Of a stretch of 64,000 bases of DNA, positions 1,185-38,289 are shown in pieces. The DNA comes from a phage, in sequence record PZ445448.1; one strand, 5' to 3'. The position numbers and the translations under genes were made by a program. The notes under the pieces are model-generated. The model did no database searches and was not told the DNA's origin. It was given only the letters and a program-made list of their open reading frames with translations. How positions within the stretch are numbered: position 1 is the first letter of the stretch; each line of letters starts with the position of its first letter.

Positions 1185-3256
1185 TGGCAACAGCTGTTTT
1201 TAAACCTTACCGTGATTACTCTACAATGGCTGCACAGTTTCATTACCGAACAGTTCAGGATACTGCCGTTCCTGGTAGGGATTATAATCATGTTGAGGGC
1301 GATATAACTATCCCAGTTGGGGCAACAAGTATTGAGATCCCCGTGGAAATTGTTGACAAATTACCCAACAGGTTGCCAAGAAGCTTCTTTATGGAGTTTT
1401 CATCAAAATCCCAAGGGGTAATGATTGGAACACAAAGGGCGAAATGTACAATAGTTTCAGATGAGAATCTTGACAGGATATCTTGGGATACTGTTGAGGA
1501 GAGAATGTTTCACCCAAGGTATTGGGTTACAACTACTCAGCAGACTGAAAGTACCTGTATTGTTGCAGATAACAACTGTTGTATTAACCGTTTAGTGTCA
1601 AGAACATATGGAGGTATGGCTGGGTGTATTTGGGAAACAGTTGACAAGTATGACCATTTCGGCATTGGGTTTGATGATCACTATGAGATGAGAAACACCA
1701 AGCTCTGGTTCAGAATGTCAATAACCAACGCCAGCAACTTCTCCACTCCTGAAAAGATGATTATGACTGTAGACCTTGTTGATGGCACAATCATCTATGT
1801 TCCTTTAGCTCAATATGCTGTCAGCATCTCAGAGGATAAGAATGTTGCAGAAATTCATATTGATTTTGAGGACTGCGTCGGGATGGACCAGAACAACAAC
1901 ATGATGGGTGTTGATCCTCGGCAGGTGAGAAGGATTTTAATACCACTCATGCCTAAAGACTGGGTAAGTAATAGCACAGACCCGAGAACGGAAAATGTAG
2001 AGTGTGAGTTGCGCCTAGATCTGCTTCAGCCAGACACAGGCTGGAAAATGATGCAACTTAACAATATTCAGGTTAAAGAGCACGACGTTGGGATCTGCAC
2101 CGCATATGACGATATGTGGAACGTATCTCCTTTAAGGGTGTTGAACAATATCAAGCGTCTGGGCTATACCGGAACCATAAACCATTATGTTGGTATGAGT
2201 CATTATTATGACTACACATGGTCAGGAACCCAATGGTCTATAAACAGAACAGGGGCGCTAAACGCTGCAGCTTATAAATGGCATGATGATTTTATGTACA
2301 ATGCCAAACGACATAACTTCGACGTTATGCAATCTGTAAGTTTTGAGCTTTTCAGCGATGCCTGCCCGTTGGAATGGACCCAAAGAGACTGGAACGATAA
2401 CTACGCTAAAACAGGGTATACACCCTGTAGCTACCTCCTGTCTCCAACCATTGAAGAGGGTATGAATTTCCTTACTGCAGTATTTAAGAATTTTGCATCA
2501 GCCGCTATGAGAAACAACCTGCCAGTGATTATGCAGGTTGGTGAACCGTGGTGGTGGTACAATACCGATACTCGTAGACCTTGTATTTATGATTACCCTA
2601 CAAAACAGGCGTTTTATGATGAGACAGGCGAGTATGCATTAGATATTGGGACTATTGACGATCCTAAAACTGGCGGTGTTTACGATAAGTATGTAGCATT
2701 TTGTCGTGGTAAGCTTGGCGCTCGTATTGCGGCTATTTCAAAGGCAATAAAGGCACACGCTGCATCAGCTCAGATGACAGCTCTGCTGTTTTTCCCAACC
2801 ATTATGGAAACCGAGCTTACGCAAAAGCTTAACCTTGCTGACCAATATAAAAAGGAAGCAGGTGCTCTTGATTTCTTCTGCACCGAGTGCTACGATTGGG
2901 TGATGCAGGGAGGTATTGAAAAGGCAAAAGAGTCTGTAAACATACCTATCGTTAAGTTAGGTTGGCAACCGTCTGAAATACAATACCTTGCAGGGTTCGT
3001 TCCTAGTAAAGAGCTTGCTCCGGTATATGGTTACGACCCAACCAGGAATTACCAAGAATTTTTATGGAGATGTATTTGCGGAAACATGGCAACTATAGAG
3101 TATAGATATCCTGAGGTAAAACAGTATGTGTGGGCATACCCGCAAGTAATGTCTGACAGCATCACTGTTACCGCTAGAGATTCTACCGTGCTTCATATGG
3201 GGCAGGTTGCTCTGAAAGGGTATGTAGAAGATGTTGTCCCGCCAGACTTCTCATAA
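1184..3256 (+). CDS. hypothetical structural protein (690 aa)
   Basis: Long ORF, RBS GACAGGAGGG upstream; coupled to upstream gene; position in tail module. Confidence 0.5.
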   Translation: MATAVFKPYRDYSTMAAQFHYRTVQDTAVPGRDYNHVEGDITIPVGATSIEIPVEIVDKLPNRLPRSFFMEFSSKSQGVMIGTQRAKCTIVSDENLDRISWDTVEERMFHPRYWVTTTQQTESTCIVADNNCCINRLVSRTYGGMAGCIWETVDKYDHFGIGFDDHYEMRNTKLWFRMSITNASNFSTPEKMIMTVDLVDGTIIYVPLAQYAVSISEDKNVAEIHIDFEDCVGMDQNNNMMGVDPRQVRRILIPLMPKDWVSNSTDPRTENVECELRLDLLQPDTGWKMMQLNNIQVKEHDVGICTAYDDMWNVSPLRVLNNIKRLGYTGTINHYVGMSHYYDYTWSGTQWSINRTGALNAAAYKWHDDFMYNAKRHNFDVMQSVSFELFSDACPLEWTQRDWNDNYAKTGYTPCSYLLSPTIEEGMNFLTAVFKNFASAAMRNNLPVIMQVGEPWWWYNTDTRRPCIYDYPTKQAFYDETGEYALDIGTIDDPKTGGVYDKYVAFCRGKLGARIAAISKAIKAHAASAQMTALLFFPTIMETELTQKLNLADQYKKEAGALDFFCTECYDWVMQGGIEKAKESVNIPIVKLGWQPSEIQYLAGFVPSKELAPVYGYDPTRNYQEFLWRCICGNMATIEYRYPEVKQYVWAYPQVMSDSITVTARDSTVLHMGQVALKGYVEDVVPPDFS

Positions 3257-3268
3257 TCAGGAGATAAA

Positions 3269-4309
3269 ATGTCAAAACCTAGTTTTCCATTAGAGATTTG
3301 GGCAGAGGAGGATCAGGTTCTGCCTAACACCCACAGACAGAACAGGCTACGCCCGATTGATGATTTGTGGAGAAAAGGTTGGGATCTTGGTCAAAAGCCC
3401 TCATGTGAAGAACTTAACTATATTTTCAATATGCTCGGGACTTGGGCAAAATACATCGCTGACGAGCAGATTCCCGCTCAAGAAGGCCGTTATCTGGTAC
3501 GTGATAATAACTTGAGTGATCTTTTGAACATTCCTGTTGCCCGTAGAAACCTTGGGATTATTACTAAGGAAGAGGCAGACGCCAGGTATGTAAAAGTTAC
3601 AGGTGATACAATGACAGGCCCATTGGGTTTGCAACGTATCAACTTTAAAGCTGCCGAGTCAGATAAGGCTTGGATAGAGACAACTATTGGCCCAGATAAG
3701 ACAACTCTCGACTTTGGGTTAAGTGATAATACCGGGTCGTTTGATGATGGTGGTACATCTACAGTGGATGCGTTCCGTTGGAGATTCCAGCCAACTCAGC
3801 CGGATATTAATCCAGAGTTCACTTTGATGTACCTTAACGCGATCACGGCTAACCGTGCGCTGTTGAAAGTGGTAGGCAATGTTGAAGTTGTCGATAACAT
3901 GAGGTGCAATAACCTTACTATCAGCAATACAGCGACATTCACCAACTGTAATGTGGCTAGTCAGTTGACGGCTGGGTCAGTGTATGTTAATGGTGGTGCA
4001 AGTTGTGACAGTATGGTTGTAAGAAGCCAGCACTGTGTTGTCGGTAACAGAAATGTGGTTCGCTCTGTGAACGGAGTGACGGCTAACGGTAACGGTGATG
4101 TAACGATCACTATCCCGCAGACAGGTGTGCAAGACATCAGAATCGGTGCAAGACTTGTGGACGGAGTTTCTGAATCTCCAATCCGCAACGGCTACGTTGT
4201 CACAGGCTGGCATTTCGGTGACAAAAAAGAGATGCGTGGTTCAACCTACTGGGCAGGACCTTTACAAAAACTTGTAAATGGTCAATGGATCACTGTTAAT
4301 TATGCATAG
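3269..4309 (+). CDS. tail fiber protein, P2 gpH-like C-terminal domain
   Basis: C-terminus ...YWAGPLQKLVNGQWITVNYA resembles the P2 H fiber end (PIQKYINGTWYNV, recalled from memory); RBS AGGAGATAAA; followed by Tfa-like chaperone. Confidence 0.65.
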   Translation: MSKPSFPLEIWAEEDQVLPNTHRQNRLRPIDDLWRKGWDLGQKPSCEELNYIFNMLGTWAKYIADEQIPAQEGRYLVRDNNLSDLLNIPVARRNLGIITKEEADARYVKVTGDTMTGPLGLQRINFKAAESDKAWIETTIGPDKTTLDFGLSDNTGSFDDGGTSTVDAFRWRFQPTQPDINPEFTLMYLNAITANRALLKVVGNVEVVDNMRCNNLTISNTATFTNCNVASQLTAGSVYVNGGASCDSMVVRSQHCVVGNRNVVRSVNGVTANGNGDVTITIPQTGVQDIRIGARLVDGVSESPIRNGYVVTGWHFGDKKEMRGSTYWAGPLQKLVNGQWITVNYA

Positions 4310-18333: not shown

Positions 18334-19815
18334 TTACTTAGCGTACTCGATTAATTCCACAGTTTTCCCAAAGCTCGGGATATAATTTTTATTATATCCC
18401 TCAGTGAGGACCCATAGAGTATCGTACTTTTTCCACTTGTTGTCAACAGCCTTTTGTTCAAAGTTATGCTCAAAGTATAGGTCGGTCAGGACGATGACAT
18501 CTTTTGCATTTGGTATGTTGGCATCCAGATACTCGAACACGCAAGCAGCTGTTGTGCCCCATGTTGAGTGGACCTCATAGTTGATCATCTCGTCTATGTT
18601 GCCGCGAGTGTATACTTTAACCTCTCCAACCTCAGTTGACCAACAGAACATTGTAACCTTAAACTCTTTATACAGATTGCACAATCCGGTGATTTCATTG
18701 AACATTTTCTTTAAAGTTCTTTGAGAGATCGAGCCAGAAACGTCTAAAGCTACAACAATATCTATGGTGTTTTCCGGATTACGACCAGGAACAATAACGT
18801 GCTGGTTCTTGTTTATAGCCCCAACTTTTCGCATTGTGCTGGTCAAAGACCCAGATCGGCGACCAGGTTTTCTGTAGGTCAGTTCAGCCTTTCGTTTAGA
18901 CAACATGCGTTGCTTAATGATGTCTATATAGTTGATTACAGGCTTACCCCTGTTCTTGACAAACTCACGCACCGCCTCAGGGCAACGACCTCCGGAAGCT
19001 TGCATTGCTGCTTCCAGCATGTCACCAGAGTCTTGCATGGCCTGATCTTTATCAGATTGGCTGATTACAGGTTGTGGCTGATCATACCCCATAGCCTTTC
19101 TAAGATCATCGCTGGTGCCACCGTTCCCGCTCATGTGATCATCGGTTTGTCGCTTATCTCCTTGAGAATTCTCACCTTTGCCGCTCTTACTTTTACCGTT
19201 ATTCTGATCTCTTTGCTTATCAAGAACTGCATAGACGTTCTCAGCAATCCATCCATGAAACTTCATGTCGCAGTAGCAACTAGCTAAGAAGCCAAAAGGC
19301 TTACCTTTTACGAACTCAGTGCTTTTCCCCTTCGGGAAGAAAACACAAGGAGGCTTGCTAAAGTCAACCACAAGACCTGTGTTGATAACGTGATCACAAG
19401 CAATATTGAACAGTTCCGGCTCAAAGCTTTTACCACGGACCAGGTGATCACAGATAATATGCCCCACCTCATGTGACAGAAGGAAGGCCACCTCTTTCAC
19501 AGATTTTGGGGAATAGAAAACTTCAGCCATCTCAAACTGCTCGTCAGTTAGAGAAGCCTTAAGAATAGCCTTGCGTTCATCAGCCAATCCCATAATGAAC
19601 TCAGGACTGTAATAGATGCGTTTATGGTCGGTTGCCATGGTGGAGCACCATGTGTGGTTTTCTACGAACTGCAACCCTGACAGTAGTGTGCCATAAAACG
19701 GCAGCTTTTCAAGGAGATACATACGTGCAGCCTGCAACATTCTCAGGGCATCATCTTTCTGTGAGGCAATGATTTCTGAACTTCTGCTATCCATTAAAAC
19801 TCCAGAAGGGGCCAT
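18334..19815 (-). CDS. VWA-domain protein with N-terminal HExxH metallopeptidase-like domain (DUF2201-type)
   Basis: HExxH motif LLSHEVGHIICDH; C-terminal MIDAS-like IDIVVALDVSGSIS; RBS GGGGG; this architecture typically partners MoxR ATPases. Confidence 0.65.
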   Translation of the reverse strand: MAPSGVLMDSRSSEIIASQKDDALRMLQAARMYLLEKLPFYGTLLSGLQFVENHTWCSTMATDHKRIYYSPEFIMGLADERKAILKASLTDEQFEMAEVFYSPKSVKEVAFLLSHEVGHIICDHLVRGKSFEPELFNIACDHVINTGLVVDFSKPPCVFFPKGKSTEFVKGKPFGFLASCYCDMKFHGWIAENVYAVLDKQRDQNNGKSKSGKGENSQGDKRQTDDHMSGNGGTSDDLRKAMGYDQPQPVISQSDKDQAMQDSGDMLEAAMQASGGRCPEAVREFVKNRGKPVINYIDIIKQRMLSKRKAELTYRKPGRRSGSLTSTMRKVGAINKNQHVIVPGRNPENTIDIVVALDVSGSISQRTLKKMFNEITGLCNLYKEFKVTMFCWSTEVGEVKVYTRGNIDEMINYEVHSTWGTTAACVFEYLDANIPNAKDVIVLTDLYFEHNFEQKAVDNKWKKYDTLWVLTEGYNKNYIPSFGKTVELIEYAK

Positions 19816-19828
19816 TTGCCCCCTGTCA

Positions 19829-20869
19829 TTATTTAACGTGTTTGAAAATACCTGCCAACTCGGTCATTGTCATGCGGGTGGTCTTCATAAGATCTGTCAT
19901 AGCTTTCTCCATAATTGGAGATACTACCATAAAGTTTCCTTTAGTGAAACCTTTATTCCAGTCGGTCACCAACAGTGGTTTAAGTCCAGCTCCGAGACGT
20001 TCACCAGTTAAAGCACAGCATTTGCGAATATACGAACTCTTAAATTGGCTGAACGACAGATCAACTTTCATACCTGCATCGTAGAACGTTTGACAATAGA
20101 AAGTGTAAGCCTTAGCAATCTCAACATCATCAGGCAGTGCAGGAACCTCTTCTGCAATCCCCTCTTCGACCTCCTGAGGCTCTTTTTCCTCTTCAGAGTT
20201 CTGTTCTTCAACTTCTTCTGTCACAGTCTCGTTCACGATGTCTGAAATGTGTTTGTTGGCTGCACGATCAGCCATGAAATTTTTAAAGTCCTGCATTGGT
20301 GACATATCTTCTTCCTCTTCGTCAAATAGTGCTAGTTTATCTTCTTCTGTCCCGTATTGCAAGATGAAATCTTCAAAAGTATAATCACCTTTCAATTTCT
20401 CCATACGCTCTTCGCTCAGGTGGAGCATCATCTGCTGGACAATTTTTCGATCAGTTTTGTCTTTAATCAGGATTGCAGTCTTTTTATCTACCAGACAGTC
20501 TTTCAGAGCATTGCACCTCAACCCTACCACACAACAATTGTCAATTGCGTAAGGACCTTCATCATCTATACGCTCCAAAGATGGGTAGAAAGGATTCCCC
20601 AGCCCGTTTTCATCTGTGTGCATGTCAAAAGGTATAAGGGTATAGTCGCATACTCCATCTCCTAAAAGTTTTTTACCAAATAGGAGGTATTCTTCCCATG
20701 ACAGGTCGAACTCTATATCTCGTTTCCGTGCGTTATTCTGTTTGCGTCTATATTTTTTGAGCAAGCGCTCTAACTCTTCTGGTGTATAATATTTTTCAAG
20801 ATTCATGAGTCGTCTCTCGTGCTCTGTAAGTGAAGAAATCGTATCAATTGTCTCAACAGATGTCAACAT
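19829..20869 (-). CDS. hypothetical protein with acidic central region
   Basis: Start at ATG 20869 (second codon of the TTG-initiated track ORF); long Glu/Asp-rich stretch; first gene of the minus-strand operon. Confidence 0.5.
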   Translation of the reverse strand: MLTSVETIDTISSLTEHERRLMNLEKYYTPEELERLLKKYRRKQNNARKRDIEFDLSWEEYLLFGKKLLGDGVCDYTLIPFDMHTDENGLGNPFYPSLERIDDEGPYAIDNCCVVGLRCNALKDCLVDKKTAILIKDKTDRKIVQQMMLHLSEERMEKLKGDYTFEDFILQYGTEEDKLALFDEEEEDMSPMQDFKNFMADRAANKHISDIVNETVTEEVEEQNSEEEKEPQEVEEGIAEEVPALPDDVEIAKAYTFYCQTFYDAGMKVDLSFSQFKSSYIRKCCALTGERLGAGLKPLLVTDWNKGFTKGNFMVVSPIMEKAMTDLMKTTRMTMTELAGIFKHVK

Positions 20870-20879
20870 CAAAAACGTG

Positions 20880-20908
20880 TTGACTTTACTCTAACTCCAC
20901 AATATAGT
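20880..20908 (+). promoter_or_regulatory. sigma70-type promoter (TTGACT-17-TATAGT)
   Basis: TTGACT at 20880-20885, 17 nt spacer, TATAGT at 20903-20908, upstream of 20949 gene. Confidence 0.5.
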
Positions 20909-20948
20909 GCACCCATTCGAAAGAAAACTAACATAGGAGCACTTACTT

Positions 20949-21848
20949 ATGGCAAATCTTAACAGTTTTAGTACGCGGTGGAAACAGGACATAACAACCA
21001 ATCTTTCAGCTGGGGACATCCTTTCTGCAATTTACGAGGATTTAGATGCTAAAGCTACTTCAAAAGCGGTTTGTACCAACCCACTAATTCCTATAGTGAT
21101 GAAGGTTATTGAGCGTAGATTGGTATCTGGGTCTGATAAGTGGACATATTTAGATAATGAAGGACACACCTATTCCAATGGGTACGTCGATATAAAAGTA
21201 GAATACGCGGTATCATACCGCCGGAGCGGTTCTGTAACTTTCAACTTCTCTGGAGGTTTTCGATCTCTGGCTACCTCACCTTTTGTTTCCTCAGAGGAGA
21301 AGTATGAGCTGCCATTTCTTTGGATGATGGCTAACGCGACAGGAAAAACCCCCGTTAGCATCCGAGTAAAATACAACTACAACGGATCTAGTAAGATCTA
21401 TGCCGAAAGTGTCTCAGCAAGTTTTTATTTTGTGATGGGGGATGGAATCCTCAAACATATAAAGATGTGCGATATGCATGATGTTATAAATGAAGTGACT
21501 GATAAGAATGTTCTAGTGAAAGACCTCAACAATTTTTATACACCCGGAGACTATTACGTCAGCCGTCCACTGTGCATCTTTAATGCCGCACACCCTCTAG
21601 GTGAGTATTTGATCGCCAATAGCGATATTGCCAATAACCGCTTCGAGGTAGCAAGAGTTCAGAATGAGGTATTGACATCTTGCAAGAGCGGTGATAAGTT
21701 TACCGAAGAAGAGATGGGTGTTTTAGAAATGATGGGATATAAGTGTAGCCTTTGGGTAGATGAGGTGTTTAATGATTGCATCTATGGACAGGATATTTAC
21801 CCATTAAAGAAGTATACTGATACAAGTTTAATTTATGCGAGGGTTTGA
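20949..21848 (+). CDS. hypothetical protein (299 aa)
   Basis: ORF after promoter; RBS ACATAGGAGCA. Confidence 0.55.
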   Translation: MANLNSFSTRWKQDITTNLSAGDILSAIYEDLDAKATSKAVCTNPLIPIVMKVIERRLVSGSDKWTYLDNEGHTYSNGYVDIKVEYAVSYRRSGSVTFNFSGGFRSLATSPFVSSEEKYELPFLWMMANATGKTPVSIRVKYNYNGSSKIYAESVSASFYFVMGDGILKHIKMCDMHDVINEVTDKNVLVKDLNNFYTPGDYYVSRPLCIFNAAHPLGEYLIANSDIANNRFEVARVQNEVLTSCKSGDKFTEEEMGVLEMMGYKCSLWVDEVFNDCIYGQDIYPLKKYTDTSLIYARV

Positions 21849-21850
21849 CT

Positions 21851-22123
21851 ATGATGAAGGCATGTGGTAATGTATATTACGTCGGTGAACATGTTCAGGC
21901 AGACAGTGTGTGGAAATCTATTAAGTCCACCACTGACGATGCCTTTCTGAGTGGACTATGTTTCCCCAATCCGGGAGACATCCTCCCTCATCCTGGAGAT
22001 TTTGTTGTCAACAAGATGGACGGTTATACCGTGTGCCTGATGGTTGAAAAAATCTTTTTAGACACTAGACACAATCACCGTCTTGTGTTAAAATTTCAAG
22101 AATGTAAAATGACAATTGCCTAA
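21851..22123 (+). CDS. hypothetical protein (90 aa)
   Basis: ATG 7 nt after GAGGG. Confidence 0.5.
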   Translation: MMKACGNVYYVGEHVQADSVWKSIKSTTDDAFLSGLCFPNPGDILPHPGDFVVNKMDGYTVCLMVEKIFLDTRHNHRLVLKFQECKMTIA

Positions 22124-22136
22124 GGAGACCTTACCG

Positions 22137-22493
22137 ATGTCTAAAGTTACTTATCGTGCAGCTATTTACTGCAATGAACACCCAATCAATAACGATGGTC
22201 ACTGCCTTTTTAAAGAAAATCAGTTGGGATGTATTGTCCTCCCTGATGAAGGGAAAGGTTATCTGATTGCATTGACAGGGTTTGAACCTGAAGCTCTGGA
22301 AGCCAATCTGGACTACCTGGTAGAAGAGGGTGCTGCAGACCTGGTTGCCAATGGCTTCTCCATAAGCCTTGACGAAGTGGAGCGCTTCATGGGCAATTAC
22401 CGTGTAGTGCGTGAGTTTACTATCGAGGTGGAAACTCCAGAGTGGGGTAGCCATGAAACTAATGCCGAAGAAAAAGAAGAGGAGGTAGAATAA
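22137..22493 (+). CDS. hypothetical protein, acidic C-terminus
   Basis: ATG after CTAAGGAGACC. Confidence 0.5.
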   Translation: MSKVTYRAAIYCNEHPINNDGHCLFKENQLGCIVLPDEGKGYLIALTGFEPEALEANLDYLVEEGAADLVANGFSISLDEVERFMGNYRVVREFTIEVETPEWGSHETNAEEKEEEVE

Positions 22494-22750
22494 TGAAAGT
22501 GCAGATCTTGACTAATGCCGAGAAGATGTTTATTGAAGATACACCTTTTGAAGCTGGTGAGCTACAGTTCATTTATTTTGTTGACTTAGATAAGGTGTTC
22601 CCTGCACTGAATCTTGGTCTGGATGAAGTTCCTCATAAGGTTTTGTGCCAAGTTGTTCGTGCATTAGCGGCAGATGGGGAGTTCCACACCCTTGAAGATG
22701 TCCAGACCTACGGGTATCTTGAACTACAACGAGAAGAAGAGGTGGACTGA
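22493..22750 (+). CDS. hypothetical protein (85 aa)
   Basis: ATG after GAGGAGGTAGAATA; overlaps previous stop. Confidence 0.5.
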   Translation: MKVQILTNAEKMFIEDTPFEAGELQFIYFVDLDKVFPALNLGLDEVPHKVLCQVVRALAADGEFHTLEDVQTYGYLELQREEEVD

Positions 22751-22752
22751 TA

Positions 22753-23133
22753 ATGGCCCTGTGGAAGACAACAGTTGACCTTCATGATCAGTGGTTAGGA
22801 CGCATCACTGAAGACGGGAAGCTAGTGGAGTGGGACAATAAGCATGTTAGCGAGTTGGCAAGTATTGTGGCTGGCAAGTTACGCTCCAAGTTCCCTGAAC
22901 AACTGGATCCTGATAGTTCAAAGTTCGATCCTGAGTTGGAGGATGTTGTATACTACTTCGACACCGTTGATGACTACGACGCGTGGTTTGCAGCACAGGA
23001 GCTTTACCCACAAGGCTCTGCTATGCGCCAGATGGAAGAAGATTATCCTCCGTGTGAGCAATTCAACAGTGCAATGACTTGCCTCTATGATTGGGCAGAT
23101 AAGAACCTTGTCTGGATTCGGACCGTATTCTAG
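22753..23133 (+). CDS. hypothetical protein (126 aa)
   Basis: ORF tightly packed after previous gene. Confidence 0.5.
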   Translation: MALWKTTVDLHDQWLGRITEDGKLVEWDNKHVSELASIVAGKLRSKFPEQLDPDSSKFDPELEDVVYYFDTVDDYDAWFAAQELYPQGSAMRQMEEDYPPCEQFNSAMTCLYDWADKNLVWIRTVF

Positions 23134-23148
23134 CAGGTAGTGGCAAGG

Positions 23149-23442
23149 ATGCCACTTAAAAGAGTAATAAACATGTTATACCAGCAATATGAACTTCGTG
23201 CAGAAAAAGAGTTAAATTTTGACAAAGATATTCACAGATATTATTATGGGAAAGTTAGAGGGCAAGCAAGAAAGTGTACTCCAACACTCTTTTATGCCAG
23301 CAGACGACTAGCGCCAGAAGAGGCAACAGCAGAAAGGGTTGCATACAACTGGGAAGTTGTGTACGATATTGACAGATCCGATGTGATATCTGTTTTGGAA
23401 AACTTTGAAAACACTTACACACAAGTAGAGGACTTTTACTAA
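23149..23442 (+). CDS. hypothetical protein
   Basis: Start uncertain (ATG 23149 or 23173); ends in TAATG overlap with the ATPase gene. Confidence 0.4.
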   Translation: MPLKRVINMLYQQYELRAEKELNFDKDIHRYYYGKVRGQARKCTPTLFYASRRLAPEEATAERVAYNWEVVYDIDRSDVISVLENFENTYTQVEDFY

Positions 23443-24626
23443 TGTCAAGAAACGTATTTGAAAGTGGTCAAATCACTGTCCGTGAGTTGCCAGCTATCAT
23501 TCAGTTTGCCCAGCGTCATAACCGATCTGTCCTGATTTTAGGACCAATGGGTGTGGGAAAGAGTCAGGTGATGAAGCAGATCGCTGATAATATGTTCGGT
23601 GAGCGAGATGACAACCTGGTTGACGTGCGGCTGTCAGATAAAGATCCTGCCGACTTATCTGGGCTACCTATCCCTGTAGAAGCGGATGGGACTACACGTA
23701 CAGTGTTTGCAATCCCAGAATTTTGGCCTGCGGATCCTGACTGGAGCGGAATTGTCTTTCTGGATGAGCTCACTCATGCAGATAACTACCTGCAAAAGGT
23801 TGCAATGCAGATTATGCTCGACCACAAGTGCGGCACCTATGCATTCCCTAAGGGCTCTGTTTTTGTAGCTGCAGGTAACCGTTCTACAGATGGTGCTGTT
23901 CTTTCGGCGCTCGAAGCCCCTCTGGCTAACCGCTTTATCATTGTAGAAGTTACAAGCAACGCAGAGGTGTTTATTGAGGACTACGCATTCCTTAATGGGG
24001 TGCACTCCTCTGTAATTGGATATCTGAAAAGAGTTCCATCAGCTATTGATAATTATGAGGCCATGGCTGAGATTAATTGTCCATCTTTTGCCACACCGCG
24101 ATCTTGGGTTGCTGCATCTGATATCTTGCACGATTTTGACAGCGGTATTATTTCTGACGCTATGGCCCGTGTTCTTCTACAAGGTGCTATTGGTCACACT
24201 GCAGCGGTAGAGATCTGGACTTACCACACCAAGAAACGCAACTTACCGGAAATCGGTCGGATTATGGCAGGAGGTTGCAAAGAATACGTAGGCCCTAAAC
24301 AGCCAGACATCTTGTGGATTCTTGGATCTGAAGGTTGTATCGCTATTCGTAATATGATGGAAAATGCAAGTATCTCCGACGAAGATCTTGTTAGCTGTGT
24401 GGCAAACTTCCTCGATTTCCTTTGGGAAAACTTCAAGGACGAGAACCGAGATTTTGTATTCTCAGTCTTTATGGCGATGATGAAACCTAATGCCTTAGGA
24501 AATGCCTTGCTTATCGGTAAAGGGCGTGACAAGATTGTTGCTCAGCTGATCAAAGCATACCCAAACCTGATGAAGATTGTAAAAGAGTTTGGTGAAGAGT
24601 TTAGCGCCATTTTGGCTAAAGCTTAA
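23442..24626 (+). CDS. MoxR-like AAA+ ATPase
   Basis: Walker A ILGPMGVGKSQV; Walker B IVFLDELTHA; size (394 aa) fits the MoxR/CobS class. Confidence 0.7.
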   Translation: MSRNVFESGQITVRELPAIIQFAQRHNRSVLILGPMGVGKSQVMKQIADNMFGERDDNLVDVRLSDKDPADLSGLPIPVEADGTTRTVFAIPEFWPADPDWSGIVFLDELTHADNYLQKVAMQIMLDHKCGTYAFPKGSVFVAAGNRSTDGAVLSALEAPLANRFIIVEVTSNAEVFIEDYAFLNGVHSSVIGYLKRVPSAIDNYEAMAEINCPSFATPRSWVAASDILHDFDSGIISDAMARVLLQGAIGHTAAVEIWTYHTKKRNLPEIGRIMAGGCKEYVGPKQPDILWILGSEGCIAIRNMMENASISDEDLVSCVANFLDFLWENFKDENRDFVFSVFMAMMKPNALGNALLIGKGRDKIVAQLIKAYPNLMKIVKEFGEEFSAILAKA

Positions 24627-31774: not shown

Positions 31775-32539
31775 TTGAAATTCATCTACAAAGAACACTA
31801 CCACAAAGGTGTTGTGTGGAGTCTATTTGACGGGTCTGGTGGTGCAGTTATTGACTGGGCAAAAGCTGGGTACCTGTGCCTGTGCTTTAATGCAGAAGGT
31901 GCTGACCACGGCAGTTATGCAGAGGTGATAACCGATCATCCTAACATTCACTATGTGGATTATTGGATTGACCCATGGTTCCCTCAGGAAACTTTTTGCA
32001 TGTATCCAGCTCCAGACTTTATTCTTGCATTTCCTCCGTGCACGCATTTAGCGGTATCAGGTGCTGCACATTTTAAGAAAAAGCTGGCTAAGGATCCTTT
32101 GATCCAAATTAATGCTGTAAAGGATGCTCGGGTTGCGGAAGAGTTGGGAGAGATTTACGATTGCCCGTGGCATGTAGAGAATCCTGTAGGGGTTATGTCC
32201 ACACTGTGGCGAAAACCTGATTACCGTTTTCATCCTTCGGATTATGGTGGGTATTTACCGGAGGATGATGTAAACCCCTGGTTTCCTGAATTTATAGCTC
32301 CACGTGATGCCTATCCAAAAATAACTTGCGGCTGGATAGGCAATGGATTTATAATCCCGGCCACAAAACCTGTCCCGCAAATAGTTGACGCGGTTAGCGG
32401 GTATTCCATGCAACACGCCAAGCTGGGTGGAAAGAGTGCAAGAACGAAGATGATCCGAAGCCTCACGCCACGTGGCTGGGCAAAAGCCGTATTCTTAGCA
32501 AACGAGCCTGTAGTAAGGAGCAGAATTAATGGGAAGTAA
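31775..32539 (+). CDS. putative DNA (cytosine-5)-methyltransferase, orphan
   Basis: TTG start after AGGAGACAGC; motif I-like LFDGSGG; PC-motif-like FPPCTHLAVSG; ENV-like HVENP; no adjacent nuclease. Confidence 0.5.
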   Translation: MKFIYKEHYHKGVVWSLFDGSGGAVIDWAKAGYLCLCFNAEGADHGSYAEVITDHPNIHYVDYWIDPWFPQETFCMYPAPDFILAFPPCTHLAVSGAAHFKKKLAKDPLIQINAVKDARVAEELGEIYDCPWHVENPVGVMSTLWRKPDYRFHPSDYGGYLPEDDVNPWFPEFIAPRDAYPKITCGWIGNGFIIPATKPVPQIVDAVSGYSMQHAKLGGKSARTKMIRSLTPRGWAKAVFLANEPVVRSRINGK

Positions 32540-34607
32540 ATTTATGGCATCTGCATACAACCGTTTCGGTGAGCCAAACCCGAAAGCAACTAAGTATAAA
32601 AGTGGGGGAAGTGTGAAACGAGACTATCGTGATGAAAAAGAGGTTGAAACTGTAGAGACTGTTTTAGAAAATACTAAAATTGTCCCTGTCCCACAACAAA
32701 ATATCGGTCTGATGGCTGCACAATATTTTGGTGTGCGATCAGCATTGTCACAAGAAGACGGTGTGACAGTCACTGCAACATATTTCCCATATTACGACCG
32801 CTACGGAAATCTGTCCGGTTTCAAAAAGCGTGACTGGACTATTCCTAAAGAACAAAGGGGCCACTTCTCCGTTGTTGGCATCGTAAAGGCCAACTCCCAG
32901 ATGTTTGGTCAAAAGCTGTGTGCATCTTCCAACAACCGTAAGCAGATTAACGTTTGTGAGGGAGAAGGTGATGTTATTGCAGCATGGCAGGCTGCATATC
33001 AGATACAAGTAAAAGGGATTCTCACCAACGCTAAAGCCCCGGCAAAGGTGAAGCAGTGGGCTAAAGAGGTCCAGGACGGGATCGACGCAGTTATCAACGG
33101 TGGTGATCTGGCAGGAAAACCCTGCCTGCCTTTTGTTGGAATTAACTGTGGATGTGCAAACGCAGTAGATACTTTTGCAAACAATGAGAAGTTTATCCGT
33201 AGCTATGGAACAGTTGTGCTGGCAATGGATAACGATGCAGCTAACGAGGTAGAGAAGCAAAAACACGTCATTAAAGGTGTTGAGGCCACGCACAATATCG
33301 CAGCATTTTTGATGGCTGATAACGTTTACCACGTAGAATACCCTGGTGAAGTAAATGACCCTGACGGGGTAAAAGATATCCGTGACATGCTGAAGGCTAA
33401 AAAGCTGGAAGATATTGTCAACATGTTCCGGCACCCTGTTAAATATGTGCCTGATGCTGTGTCGGATTTAGAAGACTTCTCTATCGAGTCTTTGCGGAAA
33501 AAGACTTCCAACGGGGTAGATATCAGCGCAGAGTTCCCAAAACTGCAAAAAATGCTAAAAGGCTTGCACAAAGGGACACTCGTAATGCTTACAGGGCCAT
33601 CAGGGGGCGGTAAAACAACTGTAGCTAAAAAACTGGAACATTGTATTGCAAGATACCTAATGGACCCGACATGCCCGAAGGCTGATGACTATGAAGAGGA
33701 TGATCGTCTATGTATGATCCATCTTGAGGAGGACCCAGAGGAAGCAATTAACTCCTTGTATGCAAACCAGTTAGGGTTTGATGTTAAAGAGTTTGTTGAA
33801 GATCCTAGCCAGTTTTTAACTGATCAAGAACACGCAGAGATTCACCAATCATGGGCAAAAGCTGGAAAAATCAAAGTGTTCAAACATTTCGGATCTATTC
33901 CGGTGGACGAGTTGATTACCAAGCTTAAGCAAATGGTTTGCCTGTACCATTGCCGTTATATTGTGCTGGATCACCTGTCCATGGTAATTTCAGGGCTTAA
34001 TGTTAAGGATGAGCGAAAAGAACTGGACATGGCTATGACTCAGCTGGCTGCGTTTTGTAAGCAGTTTAACGTGTTTATCTTGGTGATCGCTCACCTCAAA
34101 CGTACAGAGATTGTGCCTCCTAAGGACAAGGATGGTAACCCGTTACCTTTCTGGTATCCTGTGCGAAAAGAGAATTTGCGAGGATCGGCGGGGCTTGAAC
34201 AGTTGAGTTGGGTAGTCATAGGTGTCGAGGCCGAAGAAATGGTGGATCGTTCTCGTGGACGTGTCCGTCTGGTAGGTCTTAAAAACCGTCCAGCAAAAAC
34301 TCTAGGTATTGCTGACACTTTGGTTATGGACCCGCACACAGGTAAGTTCCATGATGCCAGTAATTGGTACTGGGACAAAGAAATGCAAATGTTTACAGAC
34401 GGAGAAGGTGGGGAGGTTGTTTGGAGACCTCAGGCTATGTTTGAGGATCAGGAGCATGCAGTTGTAGAAACACCTATGGGCAAGGTTGTGGCTGATAAGG
34501 TTGTAACTCCTACTGTTAAGCCTGTTGACACGCAGGAAGACCTCCAGTACGATGATCCATCCTCTGACCCGGTCCCTGGTTTTGAGGATGATGAAACGCC
34601 TTTTTAA
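32529..34607 (+). CDS. DNA primase-helicase (TOPRIM plus DnaB-like)
   Basis: TOPRIM-like CEGEGDVIAAW and MDNDAANE; Walker A LTGPSGGGKTTV; RecA-like region IVLDHLSMV. Confidence 0.7.
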   Translation: MGSKFMASAYNRFGEPNPKATKYKSGGSVKRDYRDEKEVETVETVLENTKIVPVPQQNIGLMAAQYFGVRSALSQEDGVTVTATYFPYYDRYGNLSGFKKRDWTIPKEQRGHFSVVGIVKANSQMFGQKLCASSNNRKQINVCEGEGDVIAAWQAAYQIQVKGILTNAKAPAKVKQWAKEVQDGIDAVINGGDLAGKPCLPFVGINCGCANAVDTFANNEKFIRSYGTVVLAMDNDAANEVEKQKHVIKGVEATHNIAAFLMADNVYHVEYPGEVNDPDGVKDIRDMLKAKKLEDIVNMFRHPVKYVPDAVSDLEDFSIESLRKKTSNGVDISAEFPKLQKMLKGLHKGTLVMLTGPSGGGKTTVAKKLEHCIARYLMDPTCPKADDYEEDDRLCMIHLEEDPEEAINSLYANQLGFDVKEFVEDPSQFLTDQEHAEIHQSWAKAGKIKVFKHFGSIPVDELITKLKQMVCLYHCRYIVLDHLSMVISGLNVKDERKELDMAMTQLAAFCKQFNVFILVIAHLKRTEIVPPKDKDGNPLPFWYPVRKENLRGSAGLEQLSWVVIGVEAEEMVDRSRGRVRLVGLKNRPAKTLGIADTLVMDPHTGKFHDASNWYWDKEMQMFTDGEGGEVVWRPQAMFEDQEHAVVETPMGKVVADKVVTPTVKPVDTQEDLQYDDPSSDPVPGFEDDETPF

Positions 34608-34669: not shown

Positions 34670-37036
34670 ATGAGTATGTGGAATTTTGACTTTGAGGCCT
34701 CAGGTCTTCTGGACGAGGAAGATCTTTACTACCATTGTGGCCTGTTTAAAGAGTTGAATAAAAATAATTTTATGTTGTTTTTGCCTATCAATGATAGATC
34801 TCATTACAGTGAAGAGGAGGTTGAAAAAGCAAAACAATTTATGCTGGCAAAGCAAGATATCTATCCTAGCTGCTCTGTCCGTATTGCGGATTTCAGCCAG
34901 CTTGAATGGTGGTTAACCGGGAACTCCGATTGGTCACCCACATCATTAAGTTGTCACAACTGTTTTAGTTATGACTTTATCTTGATGGAGAAGCTGTCTG
35001 GTATTCATTTTGATATGTTCCGTGATCCCAAGTGTATGGGGACAATCAATAATCATCAGGTGAACCTGTTCGACACTCTGCCAATGAGTCGTATACTATG
35101 GCCCGACAGACCGTTACCTAAAGGATGCCCTGATTCTGTATACAATCCTGTTACAAAACGTATGCAGCAGGTAGGTCCTCATGGCCTAATGGCGTGGGGG
35201 TACGCTTTAGGAAACCAGAAGGTTAAAATTGATGACTGGAGAAATTTACCTCTGTGGAAGTATGTTGATCGTGTATTCGAGGACGTTATCATCCAGGAGC
35301 TGCTCTGGAAAGAGCTGGTAGCGGAATCAAAAGGTGTATTCTACGGCAAATCTGACATGCAGAACTTTATGTACGATCCAGCCAAAGAGAAGCCGAAAGG
35401 GTTCAAGAAGATTACCTGGAAGAATGCATTACGCCGAGGCATGCTGCAGCATTTCCTGATGGAGCTGCAGGCTCGACAGGGTGTGTATTTCGACATAGAT
35501 GGGGCTATTGCTTTACGTGACCGCTGCGATGCGTGGATGAAAGAGATCGCTGATCGTGTTGAACCACAACTTCCTTTAAAAGAGTTATCAATGTCTCAGC
35601 GGCCTAAGTTCCCTGAAAAGCCGTTTAACCAGGATGGGACAATCTCCAATAATGGTTGGAAATGGTTAAAAGACAAGCTTGGCTACCCTGTGGACATGAG
35701 TGCTTTAGAATTCAAAGCTCCTCCTAAGCGAGCATTTACCTCCACAGGAGATGTCAGTAAGATGGGGATAAAATGGTGTGAAGAGATGGGCTGTAAAGAC
35801 CCTGATAAGATGGCGGATTTCTTGAGGGGCTATATCAAGGGCACCTCCACACCACAACCTTTACCTAAAGAGCTAATGGATCAGGCAATAAGTGATCTAC
35901 AGCAGAAGCGAATGCCTGACTGCAAGATACCTATGAAAATCAGCAATCAGGACGATATTAAGCGATACCTGATCAGTGCTGGTTGGCTTCCGACAATGTG
36001 GAGAACTAAGGATGTAACTAAAGACAGCAAGAAGAAAGCTCTACCTGATGCAGATGTTGATGCACGAGTGTATGCATATATGGACGAGCTTTTAGAGTCA
36101 GAGTATTGTGACCTAATTATCAACTTCTGGAACAAAACTGATGCTAAGTTCCAGACAACCGTGCACAAGTTCCGAAGCTTTCCTAACTCCGAAAGGATTA
36201 AAAAGGAAGTATTCGGGAAAATACGTAGAAAAGCTAGGGCACTTATTACTTCTCCGCAACTGAAAGATACGTTTGGACACCTATGCCCGAATCTTGAAAA
36301 ATTGAACGGAGAGATGGCTAAAGATATCGTCTTGTGGTTATCATTGCGAAACCGCAGATCGGTCCTTGATCCAATCAAGGAGGATAAGGTTGATACTGGT
36401 CTTCTTAATCACCCACGTTTGAAGATTGACCATAAGCTTCCTGCTAAAAGTTCTGGATTAACAAACACTTCCCGACAGAAACATAGTATTTGTGCAAACA
36501 TGCCTAAACCATCTCCTAAAGTGGTTATGGGTAAAGAGATGCGTAGTCTGTGGGGTGTTCCTCCAGGATACTTTGAGATCGGTATTGACGGGTCCAACTT
36601 AGAGCAGCTTATCGGGGCTTGGGGTGCCTTTGAGTTCGACAACGGCCTGTATTACGATGTTGTAAGTAACGGGGACGCACACCAAAACAATGCTGAGGCA
36701 TATACAAAAGTAGCAGGTAGAGAGGTGTCTCGTAACGACGGTAAACCTATCACGTATGGGGTTATGTATGGGGCACAAAAAGATAAAGTTGCAGATATGC
36801 TGGACATCTCTCCAGAGTTGGGACAAAGGGTAATCGATGCACTCTGGGATGCCAACCCTGGTCTTAAGGGGCGTAAAGAAGATCTGGAGAAATTCTGGGA
36901 AGCAACGGGTAAGAAGTTTATCTACTCTTTTGATGGTCATGCTATCTGGACCCGATCTAAACACTCTTTACTTAATGCATACCAACAAAATGGCGGCGCA
37001 TCGTTGTGTGACTTAGTTGGGATACTCATGCACCAT
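34670..37036 (+). CDS. family A DNA polymerase, exon 1
   Basis: Exo I FDFEASGL, motif A IGIDGSNLEQL, motif B RNDGKPITYGVMYGAQ; ORF runs 21 codons into the intron to a stop at 37097-37099; exon end at U37036 inferred. Confidence 0.65.
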
Positions 37037-37935
37037 CAAATGGTGAAGCGTGGGTGGTACGATGAAGGTGTTCGTCGTATTATCTATTACCATAAATAAC
37101 ATTGTGGCTTCGTGCAGTGATGCACGTCGAAAACCTCTTTAATTGACGGGAAGGCTAAGTTGACTTTTACACCTAAACATGGTAAAAGCTCAATATGCTA
37201 ATCCGCAGCGAAGACTAAAGGGGTGTAGTTAAAATGGCTAGATCAGTTGAGTATCACGGATATACCGTGTTTGATGATGGAACAATACCTTTATCGAAAC
37301 GTGATCATACAACAATGTTTTGTTTTGATAATGGTCGAGGTTACCTTTGCGTAACCATGTTCATCGAGGGGAAGCAGTGCACAAAAGGTGTCCACCACTT
37401 GGTTGCTGAATGCTTTGTATCAAACCCTGATCCTGAAAGGCTCACATGGGTGAACCATAAGGACGGAAACAAATACAACAATGCATACTGGAACCTTGAA
37501 TGGACCACCCCTGGTGGAAATATCAAACACGCTTATGATAATGACCTCAGAGTAAGGCCAGTCGGTGAGTATAATGCCAACGCTGTACTGACCGAGGATG
37601 AGGTAACGGAGATTTGCGAACTGTTACAAAGTGGTTTACGACAATGCGAGATTAGGGATCTTGGGTATCCTTATGAGACGGTCAGAGCCATAAAGCAAAG
37701 AAGACAGTGGAAACATATCTCTAAAAACTACACCTGGTAGTAACGTTCAGAGACTATCGAAAGCATAGCGCCAACATAAATTGGTGCGAAGAAGCGAGTA
37801 GAGTAGACCAGCAAGTGCGGTCGAAATGGGAGGTGCCTTGGTAACAAGGTAGTGAGATAGTCCGATCCATACAGGAAACTGTATGGCTGTGCACGTAATG
37901 GTGCGGGGTAGCTTAACGACCTACCTGAACTATTG
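37037..37935 (+). mobile_element. group I intron carrying an HNH homing endonuclease ORF
   Basis: Candidate P1: exon ACCAU with intron GUGGU (37054-37058), U.G at the splice site; P7-like GACUAUC (37753) / GAUAGUC (37846); terminal G at 37935; splicing restores HDE and keeps frame. Confidence 0.55.
37234..37740 (+). CDS. HNH homing endonuclease (intron-encoded)
   Basis: HHLVAECF...WVNHKDGNKYNNAYWNLEW matches HNH_3-type signature; C-terminal helix-turn-helix-like segment. Confidence 0.65.
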   Translation: MARSVEYHGYTVFDDGTIPLSKRDHTTMFCFDNGRGYLCVTMFIEGKQCTKGVHHLVAECFVSNPDPERLTWVNHKDGNKYNNAYWNLEWTTPGGNIKHAYDNDLRVRPVGEYNANAVLTEDEVTEICELLQSGLRQCEIRDLGYPYETVRAIKQRRQWKHISKNYTW

Positions 37936-38289
37936 GATGAGTACCAACTTCAAGTCCCTGACACACCGAAGTATAAGACTGTGTACACCTTCGACACAAT
38001 CGAAGAACTGGAAGCATTTAAGGCAGAGCAGGAGGCCAAACTTCATGTGTTCGACGGTCATAAGTACAAAAAGGCACGCAAGGATGAGGACGGAAACGAA
38101 GTGGTTGACAGAGACGGAAACACGGTGTACGATCCTATCCTGAACGATGACGGAAAGCTTGAACTTATCTGGAGCCCTGTGGGTGAAATGGTGGTGCATT
38201 GCTTCTGGCAAGCTTCTAAAATGATGGGCGTCCCGTTCCAGATCACGGGTGAATACCTGTGTGGTCGTAATTGGGGTGATTGTCACTAA
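37936..38289 (+). CDS. family A DNA polymerase, exon 2 (C-terminal segment)
   Basis: Begins DEYQLQV, completing motif C (..LMHH|DEYQL); ends GRNWGDCH, like the T7/Pol I C-terminus (G.NW..H, recalled from memory); has no own ATG or RBS. Confidence 0.6.
   Translation, partial: DEYQLQVPDTPKYKTVYTFDTIEELEAFKAEQEAKLHVFDGHKYKKARKDEDGNEVVDRDGNTVYDPILNDDGKLELIWSPVGEMVVHCFWQASKMMGVPFQITGEYLCGRNWGDCH

Follow-up and report, generated by a model that had tools for sequence, protein, structure and literature searches.

The stretch of phage DNA described here (sequence record PZ445448.1; 64,000 nucleotides, referred to below as the window) carries at positions 34670-38289 an interrupted gene for a family A DNA polymerase (Pol A); all of the features described lie on the + strand. 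It is almost certain that this Vequintavirus gene is split between the His and the Asp-Glu of motif C (HDE) by an 842-nt group I intron of IA2-like type, located at 37094-37935, in which a gene for an HNH homing endonuclease is nested. The evidence comes from a match to the Rfam model RF00028, from alleles that are free of the intron, from covariation, and from the identity of the spliced product with GenBank proteins. The interval 34670-38289 matches 118 phage records, nearly all of which are Vequintavirus (rV5-like E. coli myophages), and its best match over the whole length is Escherichia phage vB_EcoM_SophiaRose (98.7% identity). Three open reading frames (ORFs) are found in the interval: the first (34670-37099) encodes 809 amino acids (aa), begins MSMWNFDFEASGL and ends ...RRIIYYHK before a TAA stop codon; the second (37234-37740) encodes the HNH protein; and the third, which is in the frame of exon 1, closes at 38289 with ...GRNWGDCH and a stop codon, its sole start codon being a TTG at 37933. 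An initial annotation, made from the letters alone, had read these ORFs as a Pol A gene split by an HNH-bearing group I intron, with the HDE motif restored on splicing, and this proposal was upheld by every test. The observation that the polymerase ORF containing FDFEASGL stops at 37099 before any HDE was likewise confirmed.

Exon 1 (34670-37093) comprises 808 codons, encodes Exo I as well as motif A (GIDGSNLEQ) and motif B (RNDGKPITYGVMYGA), and ends ...RRIIYYH, whilst exon 2 (37936-38289; DEYQLQV...GRNWGDCH) comprises 117 codons and a stop codon and brings in the two catalytic acids of motif C (Asp and Glu) together with the C-terminal His. When exon 1 is compared with T7 gp5 (E = 7.8e-16), motifs A and B align and Exo I aligns weakly. 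The alignment of the spliced protein to T7 gp5, which had been suggested as a check, runs across the junction as corrected below (residues 633-813), matching rriiyyhdeyql with aymawvhdeiqv. Exon 2 matches the DNA polymerase family phrog_8888 at profile positions 186-295 of 295 (E = 4.5e-58); a search of the Protein Data Bank (PDB) with exon 2 alone gave chance matches only, for example TFB1. The spliced product is 925 aa in length and matches Pfam DNA_pol_A with 32.6 bits, being aligned through the junction to profile position 349. Once a 72-aa lineage-specific insertion (PDTPKY...LELIW; 37957-38172), found after the motif C strand and before the C-terminal helix, is deleted in silico, the alignment reaches position 380/381, which means that ...GRNWGDCH is the canonical end of Pol A, as the initial annotation had recognized. 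The DNA_pol_A scores (32.6-33.0 bits) are slightly below the cut-off of 34.3; the Exo motifs, motifs A, B and C (HDE) and the C-terminal His are all present, which places the protein in family A (T7 gp5-like). Counted from the D of HDE, the tail of the protein has 117 aa, in agreement with the earlier remark that this tail, put at about 117 aa, is longer than usual. The length is due to the 72-aa insertion, which is also found in the uninterrupted polymerase gene of phage DrSchubert and is therefore unrelated to the intron; no significant PDB match to the insertion was found by sequence.

The splice sites lie after U37093 (5') and after G37935 (3'), so that the junction in the protein is ...RRIIYYH|DEYQLQV; the predicted spliced RNA reads ...UAUUACCAU|GAUGAGUAC... 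(CCAU|GAUG) and the predicted junction peptide is IIYYHDEYQLQVPDTPK. The intron starts with AAAUAA, so that unspliced RNA gains one Lys codon and then stops, and it ends with omega-G37935, the terminal G noted earlier, followed by exon GAUGAG. Of the 60 records that match best, 40 contain a 400-nt conceptual junction in unbroken form, with 96.5-99% identity, and the other 20 are interrupted only by an ORF-less intron of 276-329 nt. Both ends of the intron (flanks CAT|AAA ... TTG|GAT) are placed unambiguously from the intron-free alleles. Indeed, the uninterrupted gene of DrSchubert (2778 nt) encodes 925 aa, the length of the spliced product, with 892 of 925 residues identical. The spliced window protein equals GenBank QXV82815.1 (MaxTheCat, a join coding sequence, CDS) and QXV75624.1 (AlexBoehm) in every residue, and the polymerase gene of phage EmilHeitz (intron 99.6% identical to that of the window), when spliced at the same junction, gives exactly QXV77979.1, whose CDS is entered in GenBank as a join of two pieces that enclose the endonuclease. 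The 37093|37936 junction is thus supported by three independent lines that agree with one another, namely the intron-free alleles, the T7 gp5/Pfam alignment and the GenBank join proteins. These comparisons establish both boundaries, the identities of the exons and the presence/absence polymorphism of the intron, with and without its ORF.

A covariance-model search, which had also been suggested at the outset, returned RF00028 at 37084-37885 (model positions 1-253; 39.1 bits), with E = 3e-8 in a search of 1.1 kb and E = 1.8e-6 over the whole window, in an alignment that skips 510 nt of ORF. A scan of the whole window with Rfam at the gathering threshold listed no group I match, and one at E <= 0.1 gave no other group I match; the default threshold misses the ORF-bearing intron. 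Covariation was assessed in an alignment of 15 distinct introns occupying the same site in eight phage lineages, from which the ORFs had been removed and in which P1-P9.2 were defined on the window sequence. The Vequintavirus members are the window, SophiaRose and Mangalyan, which have an ORF, and the ORF-less MaxTheCat (276 nt, identical to rV5), JEP1 and JLBYU08 (328-329 nt). The unassigned Vequintavirinae are represented by TH18 (317 nt, ORF-less) and LTH01, and the remaining sequences are from Avunavirus Av-05, Seunavirus GEC_vB_MG and Csp-D17, Certrevirus phiTE, Pseudomonas Pakpunavirus SPA01, Aeromonas phage 4L372D and Vibrio phage K460 (254 nt); the intron copy of Klebsiella phage K54_rec2 is identical to that of GEC_vB_MG. 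Across the 15 sequences 92.4% of cells in the proposed helices are paired, compared with 36-41% in controls with the 3' partners shifted by 1-3 columns. Changes on both sides (compensatory changes) occur in 38 of 84 pairs, and none of 500 shuffles reached the observed covariation score. Compensatory changes come close to saturation in P2, P3, P8, P9 and P9.2; they are found in the core helices P3, P4, P6, P7 and P8, and the group I core including the P3/P7 pseudoknot is present. RNAalifold, which is independent of the model, finds P1, P2, P3, P7.2, P8, P9, P9.1 and P9.2. The ribozyme fold is therefore both conserved and covarying.

At the 5' end, P1 (37090-37107) was placed by the covariance-model alignment and pairs exon CCAU and intron AA (37090-95) with UUGUGG (37102-07), which sets a U37093.G37104 wobble at the splice site; P1 is invariant, with UG in 15/15 sequences. 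A candidate P10 pairs the guide CAUU (37100-03) with GAUG of exon 2 (37936-39), and all 15 introns end in G. P2 is a hairpin (37111-37126; CGUGCA GUGA UGCACG) with 100% of cells paired and compensatory changes in 5/6 pairs. The 5' strand of P3 (CCUCUU, 37134-37139) pairs with GGGAGG (37828-37833), also with 100% pairing and with three double-change pairs, and is among the helices recovered by RNAalifold. The P4-P5-P5a domain (37144-37207) is composed of P4 (37144-50/37202-07; 84% paired), P5 (37153-55/37197-99) and P5a (37160-70/37182-93). The 5' strand of P6 (GCG, 37208-37210) pairs with CGU (37744-46), and the P6a loop between the two strands houses the endonuclease gene, in place of which the ORF-less relatives JLBYU08 and JEP1 have a 5-bp GNRA hairpin. 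P7, already noticed in the initial annotation as the P7-like strands GACUAUC/GAUAGUC, is formed by GACUAU (37752-37757) and AUAGUC (37857-62), is 95.6% paired, forms the pseudoknot with P3 and shows a U-A to C-G double change in four sequences. Between the P7 strands lie P7.1 and P7.2 (37763-37822; P7.1 37763-64/37794-95 and 37768-74/37781-87, P7.2 37806-09/37819-22), and then a block (37828-37862) made up of the 3' strand of P3 (37828-33), P8 (37834-40/37845-51; compensatory changes in 6/7 pairs) and the 3' strand of P7. The 3' domain (37868-37925) comprises P9 (37868-74/37879-85), P9.1 (37890-94/37901-05) and P9.2 (37907-11/37921-25), which are 98.7-100% paired with 4, 2 and 3 double-change pairs, respectively. 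In introns of subgroup IA2, P7.1 and P7.2 stand between P7 and the 3' strand of P3 and are joined by G-U-A (PMC3428280). All 15 introns have an invariant GUAG linker directly 5' of P7.2, and the window intron can accordingly be described as IA2-like, an assignment made from this P7.1/P7.2-GUAG feature alone.

We infer catalysis by the window copy, together with the activity and the cleavage site of its endonuclease, and propose the following course. Transcription would continue through the intron and the RNA would fold into the P1-P10 ribozyme, in which P1 (exon CCAU with GUGG) would set U37093.G37104 at the 5' splice site and P7 would form the guanosine-binding pocket (37752-57/37857-62). Exogenous guanosine would attack the 5' splice site, omega-G37935 would exchange in, and P10 (GAUG with CAUU 37100-03) would position exon 2 for ligation, such that two transesterifications would excise 842 nt and join exon 1 to exon 2. 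The ligated message would be translated into the 925-aa polymerase with an intact HDE, and the unspliced RNA into a polymerase that ends one residue after the His and is devoid of the catalytic Asp and Glu. The polymerase gene is essential, and the intron-bearing phages are viable isolates.

The HNH gene (37234-37740), which the initial annotation had delimited correctly, sits in the P6a loop and encodes a 168-aa protein of the I-HmuI type, with a NUMOD4/HNH N-terminal part and a C-terminal DNA-binding part. The protein matches phrog_59 (E = 6.5e-38), and its best PDB match is I-HmuI (1U3E; E = 4.4e-6, residues 12-100), with vNHKDGNKyNN...NLeW aligned to vDHKDGNKdNN...NLrW and the catalytic HKDGNKxNN...NLxW kept; a search of NCBIfam with the protein gave nothing meaningful. 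Relatives of the protein are found in 555 phage records. By analogy with I-HmuI, the protein is expected to drive homing: in a mixed infection it would nick or cut polymerase alleles that lack the intron, close to the insertion site, and repair would copy the intron in. Circumstantially, homing would fit the presence or absence of the intron among phages that are otherwise nearly identical, and the occupation of one and the same site in eight lineages. Loss of the ORF would then generate the 276-329-nt derivatives, and precise loss of the intron would generate intron-free alleles. The likely ribosome-binding site of the gene is AAGGGG (37218-23). This sequence sits in the loop of a possible hairpin of 4-5 bp (ACUA/UAGU, within 37211-37236), and the same ACUA could alternatively pair with UAGU at the stop codon of the HNH ORF, closing P6a. 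A hairpin that sequesters the ribosome-binding site and regulates the HNH start was considered and dropped, as ACUA/UAGU has only -2.2 kcal/mol and a competing fold has -6.5.

The intron is already known, in that it is annotated with the same junction in public records of sister phages and has an orthologue with experimental support. In the BASEL Vequintavirus phages EmilHeitz (Bas49), WalterGehring and HeinrichReichert the intron is 97.4-99.6% identical to that of the window and at the same position, and MaxTheCat (Bas57), of the same collection, has its ORF-less form. In these genomes the polymerase is given as a two-piece join CDS with a nested 'putative homing endonuclease', the join products fit 37093|37936, and there is no substantive difference from the window intron. 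Its boundaries were set there by comparative genomics, in a paper that presents neither a structure for the ribozyme nor an assay of splicing (Maffei et al. 2021, PMC8594841). In the genome paper of rV5, the terminase gene is the only one for which introns are mentioned (PMC3606486). The rV5 record enters the pieces of the polymerase as separate genes, and in it (DQ832317, locus 3231-3830) three 'hypothetical proteins' (ORF 227, 226 and 225) lie in or across the 276-nt ORF-less intron and exon 2, and are probably artefacts of an unrecognised intron; the RefSeq copy of rV5 lists 'DNA polymerase' twice. For the CB7_50 intron of Pectobacterium phage CB7, splicing has been shown by reverse transcription (RT)-PCR and Sanger sequencing (PMC7344957). 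Like the window intron, it occupies the YYH|DE site; its ribozyme is homologous, with 75-78% identity where the 5' and 3' parts can be aligned. It differs in being 687 nt long and in carrying a shorter and different HNH ORF (127 aa, without the C-terminal DNA-binding domain), and the polymerase gene of phages of the CB7 type, unlike that of the window, also contains a second intron as well as free-standing HNH genes.

More distant parallels are provided by other phage introns. The td intron of phage T4, with I-TevI, is an IA2 intron with P7.1/P7.2, has its ORF looped from P6a and follows an ORF-less/ORF-plus homing cycle; it differs from the window intron in its host gene, which is that for thymidylate synthase, and in its endonuclease family, GIY-YIG. 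The polymerase introns of SPO1, SP82 and Bastille (with the nicking enzymes I-HmuI, I-HmuII and I-BasI) resemble that of the window in being group I introns in Pol A whose HNH endonucleases share a family with the window HNH protein, the closest solved relative of which is I-HmuI (1U3E), the nickase from the SPO1 polymerase intron. Their ORF is found at a different position in the ribozyme. They are also unlike the window intron in their insertion site and their Gram-positive host; the SPO1/Bastille-type introns are inserted at site 674, in the fingers (PMC3428280). Closer to the window in position are the introns of the T7-like coliphages PhiI and W31, which are podoviruses of another family and are likened here by their published site. 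Their DNA polymerase introns are reportedly the subject of work by Bonocora and Shub in 2004, and W31 is said to encode the HNH endonuclease I-TslI. His881 of E. coli Pol I we take to be the His of HDE, which would make the PhiI/W31 site the same codon boundary as that of the window. PhiI and W31 are described as having, at Pol I site 881, an intron of subgroup IA2 whose P6a carries an HNH ORF (PMC3428280).

Of most interest among the loose ends is a set of four silent changes that adjoin the insertion site in some of the intron-free alleles. In the intron-free phages JeffSchatz and Murica the equivalents of 37936-37947 read GAT GAG TAC CAA, as in the intron-bearing phages (type sequence GATGAGTACCAA), and in the intron-free DrSchubert, slur16, V18 and naswa they read GAC GAA TAT CAG (type sequence GACGAATATCAG, DrSchubert/slur16). 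Immediately 3' of the insertion site the two types are thus set apart by four silent changes in a span of 10 nt, and DrSchubert shows no further mismatch over about 500 nt on the upstream side and 300 nt on the downstream side. JLBYU08, which has the ORF-less intron, shows three of the four changes and retains the T that pairs in P10. These changes could reflect a target resistant to the endonuclease, a relaxed P10 constraint, or both. The same codon boundary (...YH|DE...) is occupied in Avunavirus, Seunavirus, Certrevirus, Klebsiella, Aeromonas, Pseudomonas and Vibrio phages; a homologous ribozyme is found at it in at least eight phage lineages, accompanied by at least two different HNH genes. 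If the boundary is truly shared by PhiI and W31, as the published site suggests, it would be an unusually promiscuous homing site that crosses phage families. It is tempting, if somewhat speculative, to combine these observations into a picture in which the silent changes are a naturally selected 'immune' target in an ongoing arms race between intron and polymerase, at such a promiscuous site. If this were true, the silent changes would map the recognition sequence of an uncharacterised HNH enzyme, and the arms race would be under way in a widely used group of therapeutic coliphages.

It may be asked whether the HNH gene is active at all. The intron could splice and carry an inactive HNH gene, which would be a decaying passenger or recruited elsewhere, and could spread by ordinary recombination only. 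ORF-less derivatives are indeed common (at least 20 of the 60 best records) and represent the stage of decay that a homing cycle would predict, the match to Pfam HNH_3 is under its cut-off, and activity is assumed here by analogy only. Against this, the ORF is full-length, keeps the HKDGNKxNN...NLxW motif when compared with I-HmuI, and stays unbroken both in about 30 records at 93-99% amino-acid identity and, at 50-70%, in Av-05, SPA01 and GEC_vB_MG; the four silent changes beside the insertion site would also fit selection by an active enzyme, this being one reading among several. An inactive gene is on balance regarded as rather doubtful, and an HNH protein that promotes homing is preferred.

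Several observations weigh against a splicing, mobile intron. The RF00028 score of 39.1 bits is under the Rfam gathering threshold of 50; the ORF-less orthologues of the same intron score 64.7-91.2 bits and clear this threshold, which would attribute the low score of the window intron to the ORF insertion and not to decay. P5 and P5a are the weakest part of the structural model, with 67% of cells paired and P5a variable between lineages and poorly aligned; P10 is no longer than 4 bp, and less strong in SPA01 and K460; and the Pfam HNH_3 match is weak (E = 0.0027; 17.7 bits, with the cut-off at 24.8). The RNA data are for a relative (CB7) only, and for the window copy we infer splicing. In addition, some intron-associated HNH genes in relatives are not spliced out, an example being CB7_245 of CB7 (PMC7344957). 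The last of these, like the HNH-split NrdA of Aeromonas phage Aeh1, is a precedent for an arrangement in which no splicing takes place, the 809-aa protein and a 118-aa fragment started from TTG 37933 assemble non-covalently, and the ribozyme-like sequence is a relic. Many GenBank records do annotate two polymerase CDSs and an HNH gene, and the in-frame TTG is 3 nt 5' of exon 2. However, such an assembly would divide a single beta-turn between two chains, the catalytic His on one and the Asp-Glu on the other, and TTG 37933 has no ribosome-binding site upstream of it. A relic would not hold 92% pairing and 38 compensated pairs across eight lineages, nor would ORF-less copies of 254-329 nt survive with intact cores of 65-91 bits, and the orthologous CB7_50 intron splices. 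A polymerase of two polypeptides is therefore unlikely, and this arrangement is given very little credence beside a spliced 925-aa protein.

The initial annotation's 5' splice site has to be abandoned. It had joined U37036 to G37936, with an intron at 37037-37935, a P1 of ACCAU (37032-36) and GUGGU (37054-58), and a product ...LMHH-DEYQL...; both strings exist, the frame is kept and the HDE tripeptide is recreated, but this junction is refuted, since the 57 nt at 37037-37093 are coding in every uninterrupted allele, where they encode QMVKRGWYDEGVRRIIYYH and align to T7 gp5, the intron-free alleles are contiguous only across 37093|37936, the Rfam alignment puts P1 at 37088-37109, Pfam DNA_pol_A would end at profile position 261 (27.3 compared with 32.6 bits), and the GenBank join CDS products fit the 37093 junction exactly. 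The 3' site after G37935 was placed correctly, and the true 5' site is 57 nt (19 codons) downstream of the one first chosen, giving IIYYH|DEYQL. The wrong ACCAU had been picked, in coding exon 1; a second copy at 37089-93 is the one that pairs with GUGG (37104-07).

The exact junction 37093|37936 is of value for annotation, as it gives the correct 925-aa polymerase; most public rV5-like records show the polymerase as two genes, or exon 2 as a hypothetical protein. In biological terms the intron adds one to the homing introns that interrupt an essential replication gene at its most conserved codons, and it introduces no new principle. Intron-plus, ORF-less and intron-free alleles occur naturally among phages developed for therapy and biocontrol, and the coexistence of these three states provides a convenient system for study of the homing cycle. 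Scans of IMG/VR for further alleles gave two intron-free and eight intron-bearing loci, several of which are known phages, a number too small for a table of haplotypes.

The polymerase gene is preceded by a primase/helicase gene (32529-34607; DnaB_C, AAA_25) and followed by small ORFs, an order that is the same in annotated relatives. The window polymerase gene has a single interruption only. In Certrevirus, Seunavirus, Avunavirus and Klebsiella relatives the polymerase gene is in at least three pieces, with additional free-standing HNH genes (e.g. phiTE; CB7 19494-23521), and an upstream second group I intron in these relatives gives an Rfam match of 43.8 bits, truncated by the edge of the locus (phiTE 1-116). 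In Mangalyan (locus 3014-3982) and JEP1, exon 1 is enlarged by an in-frame insertion of 323 aa that separates GDAH from QNN, at a point that corresponds to 36682|36683 of the window, which is without it. The Pfam Hint_2 match to this insertion is weak, and the insertion has hallmarks of an intein, namely an N-terminal CYSGDTQILT, a LAGLIDADG-like LLIAIHDDG and a C-terminal ...VAVCGN followed by Cys. About 15 GenBank records (MG0656xx) titled 'Campylobacter phage', with Campylobacter jejuni as host, are 91-99% identical to E. coli Vequintavirus in this region, intron included, and look like mislabelled or contaminating coliphage genomes. Finally, the start of the polymerase gene (34670-35270, about 600 nt, the exonuclease domain) is mosaic: it has 17-36 mismatches per 100 nt when compared with DrSchubert and JLBYU08 and 0-1 when compared with MaxTheCat and SophiaRose, and the remainder of the gene has 0-9 per 100 nt against all four, a pattern that points to a recombination breakpoint near 35270.

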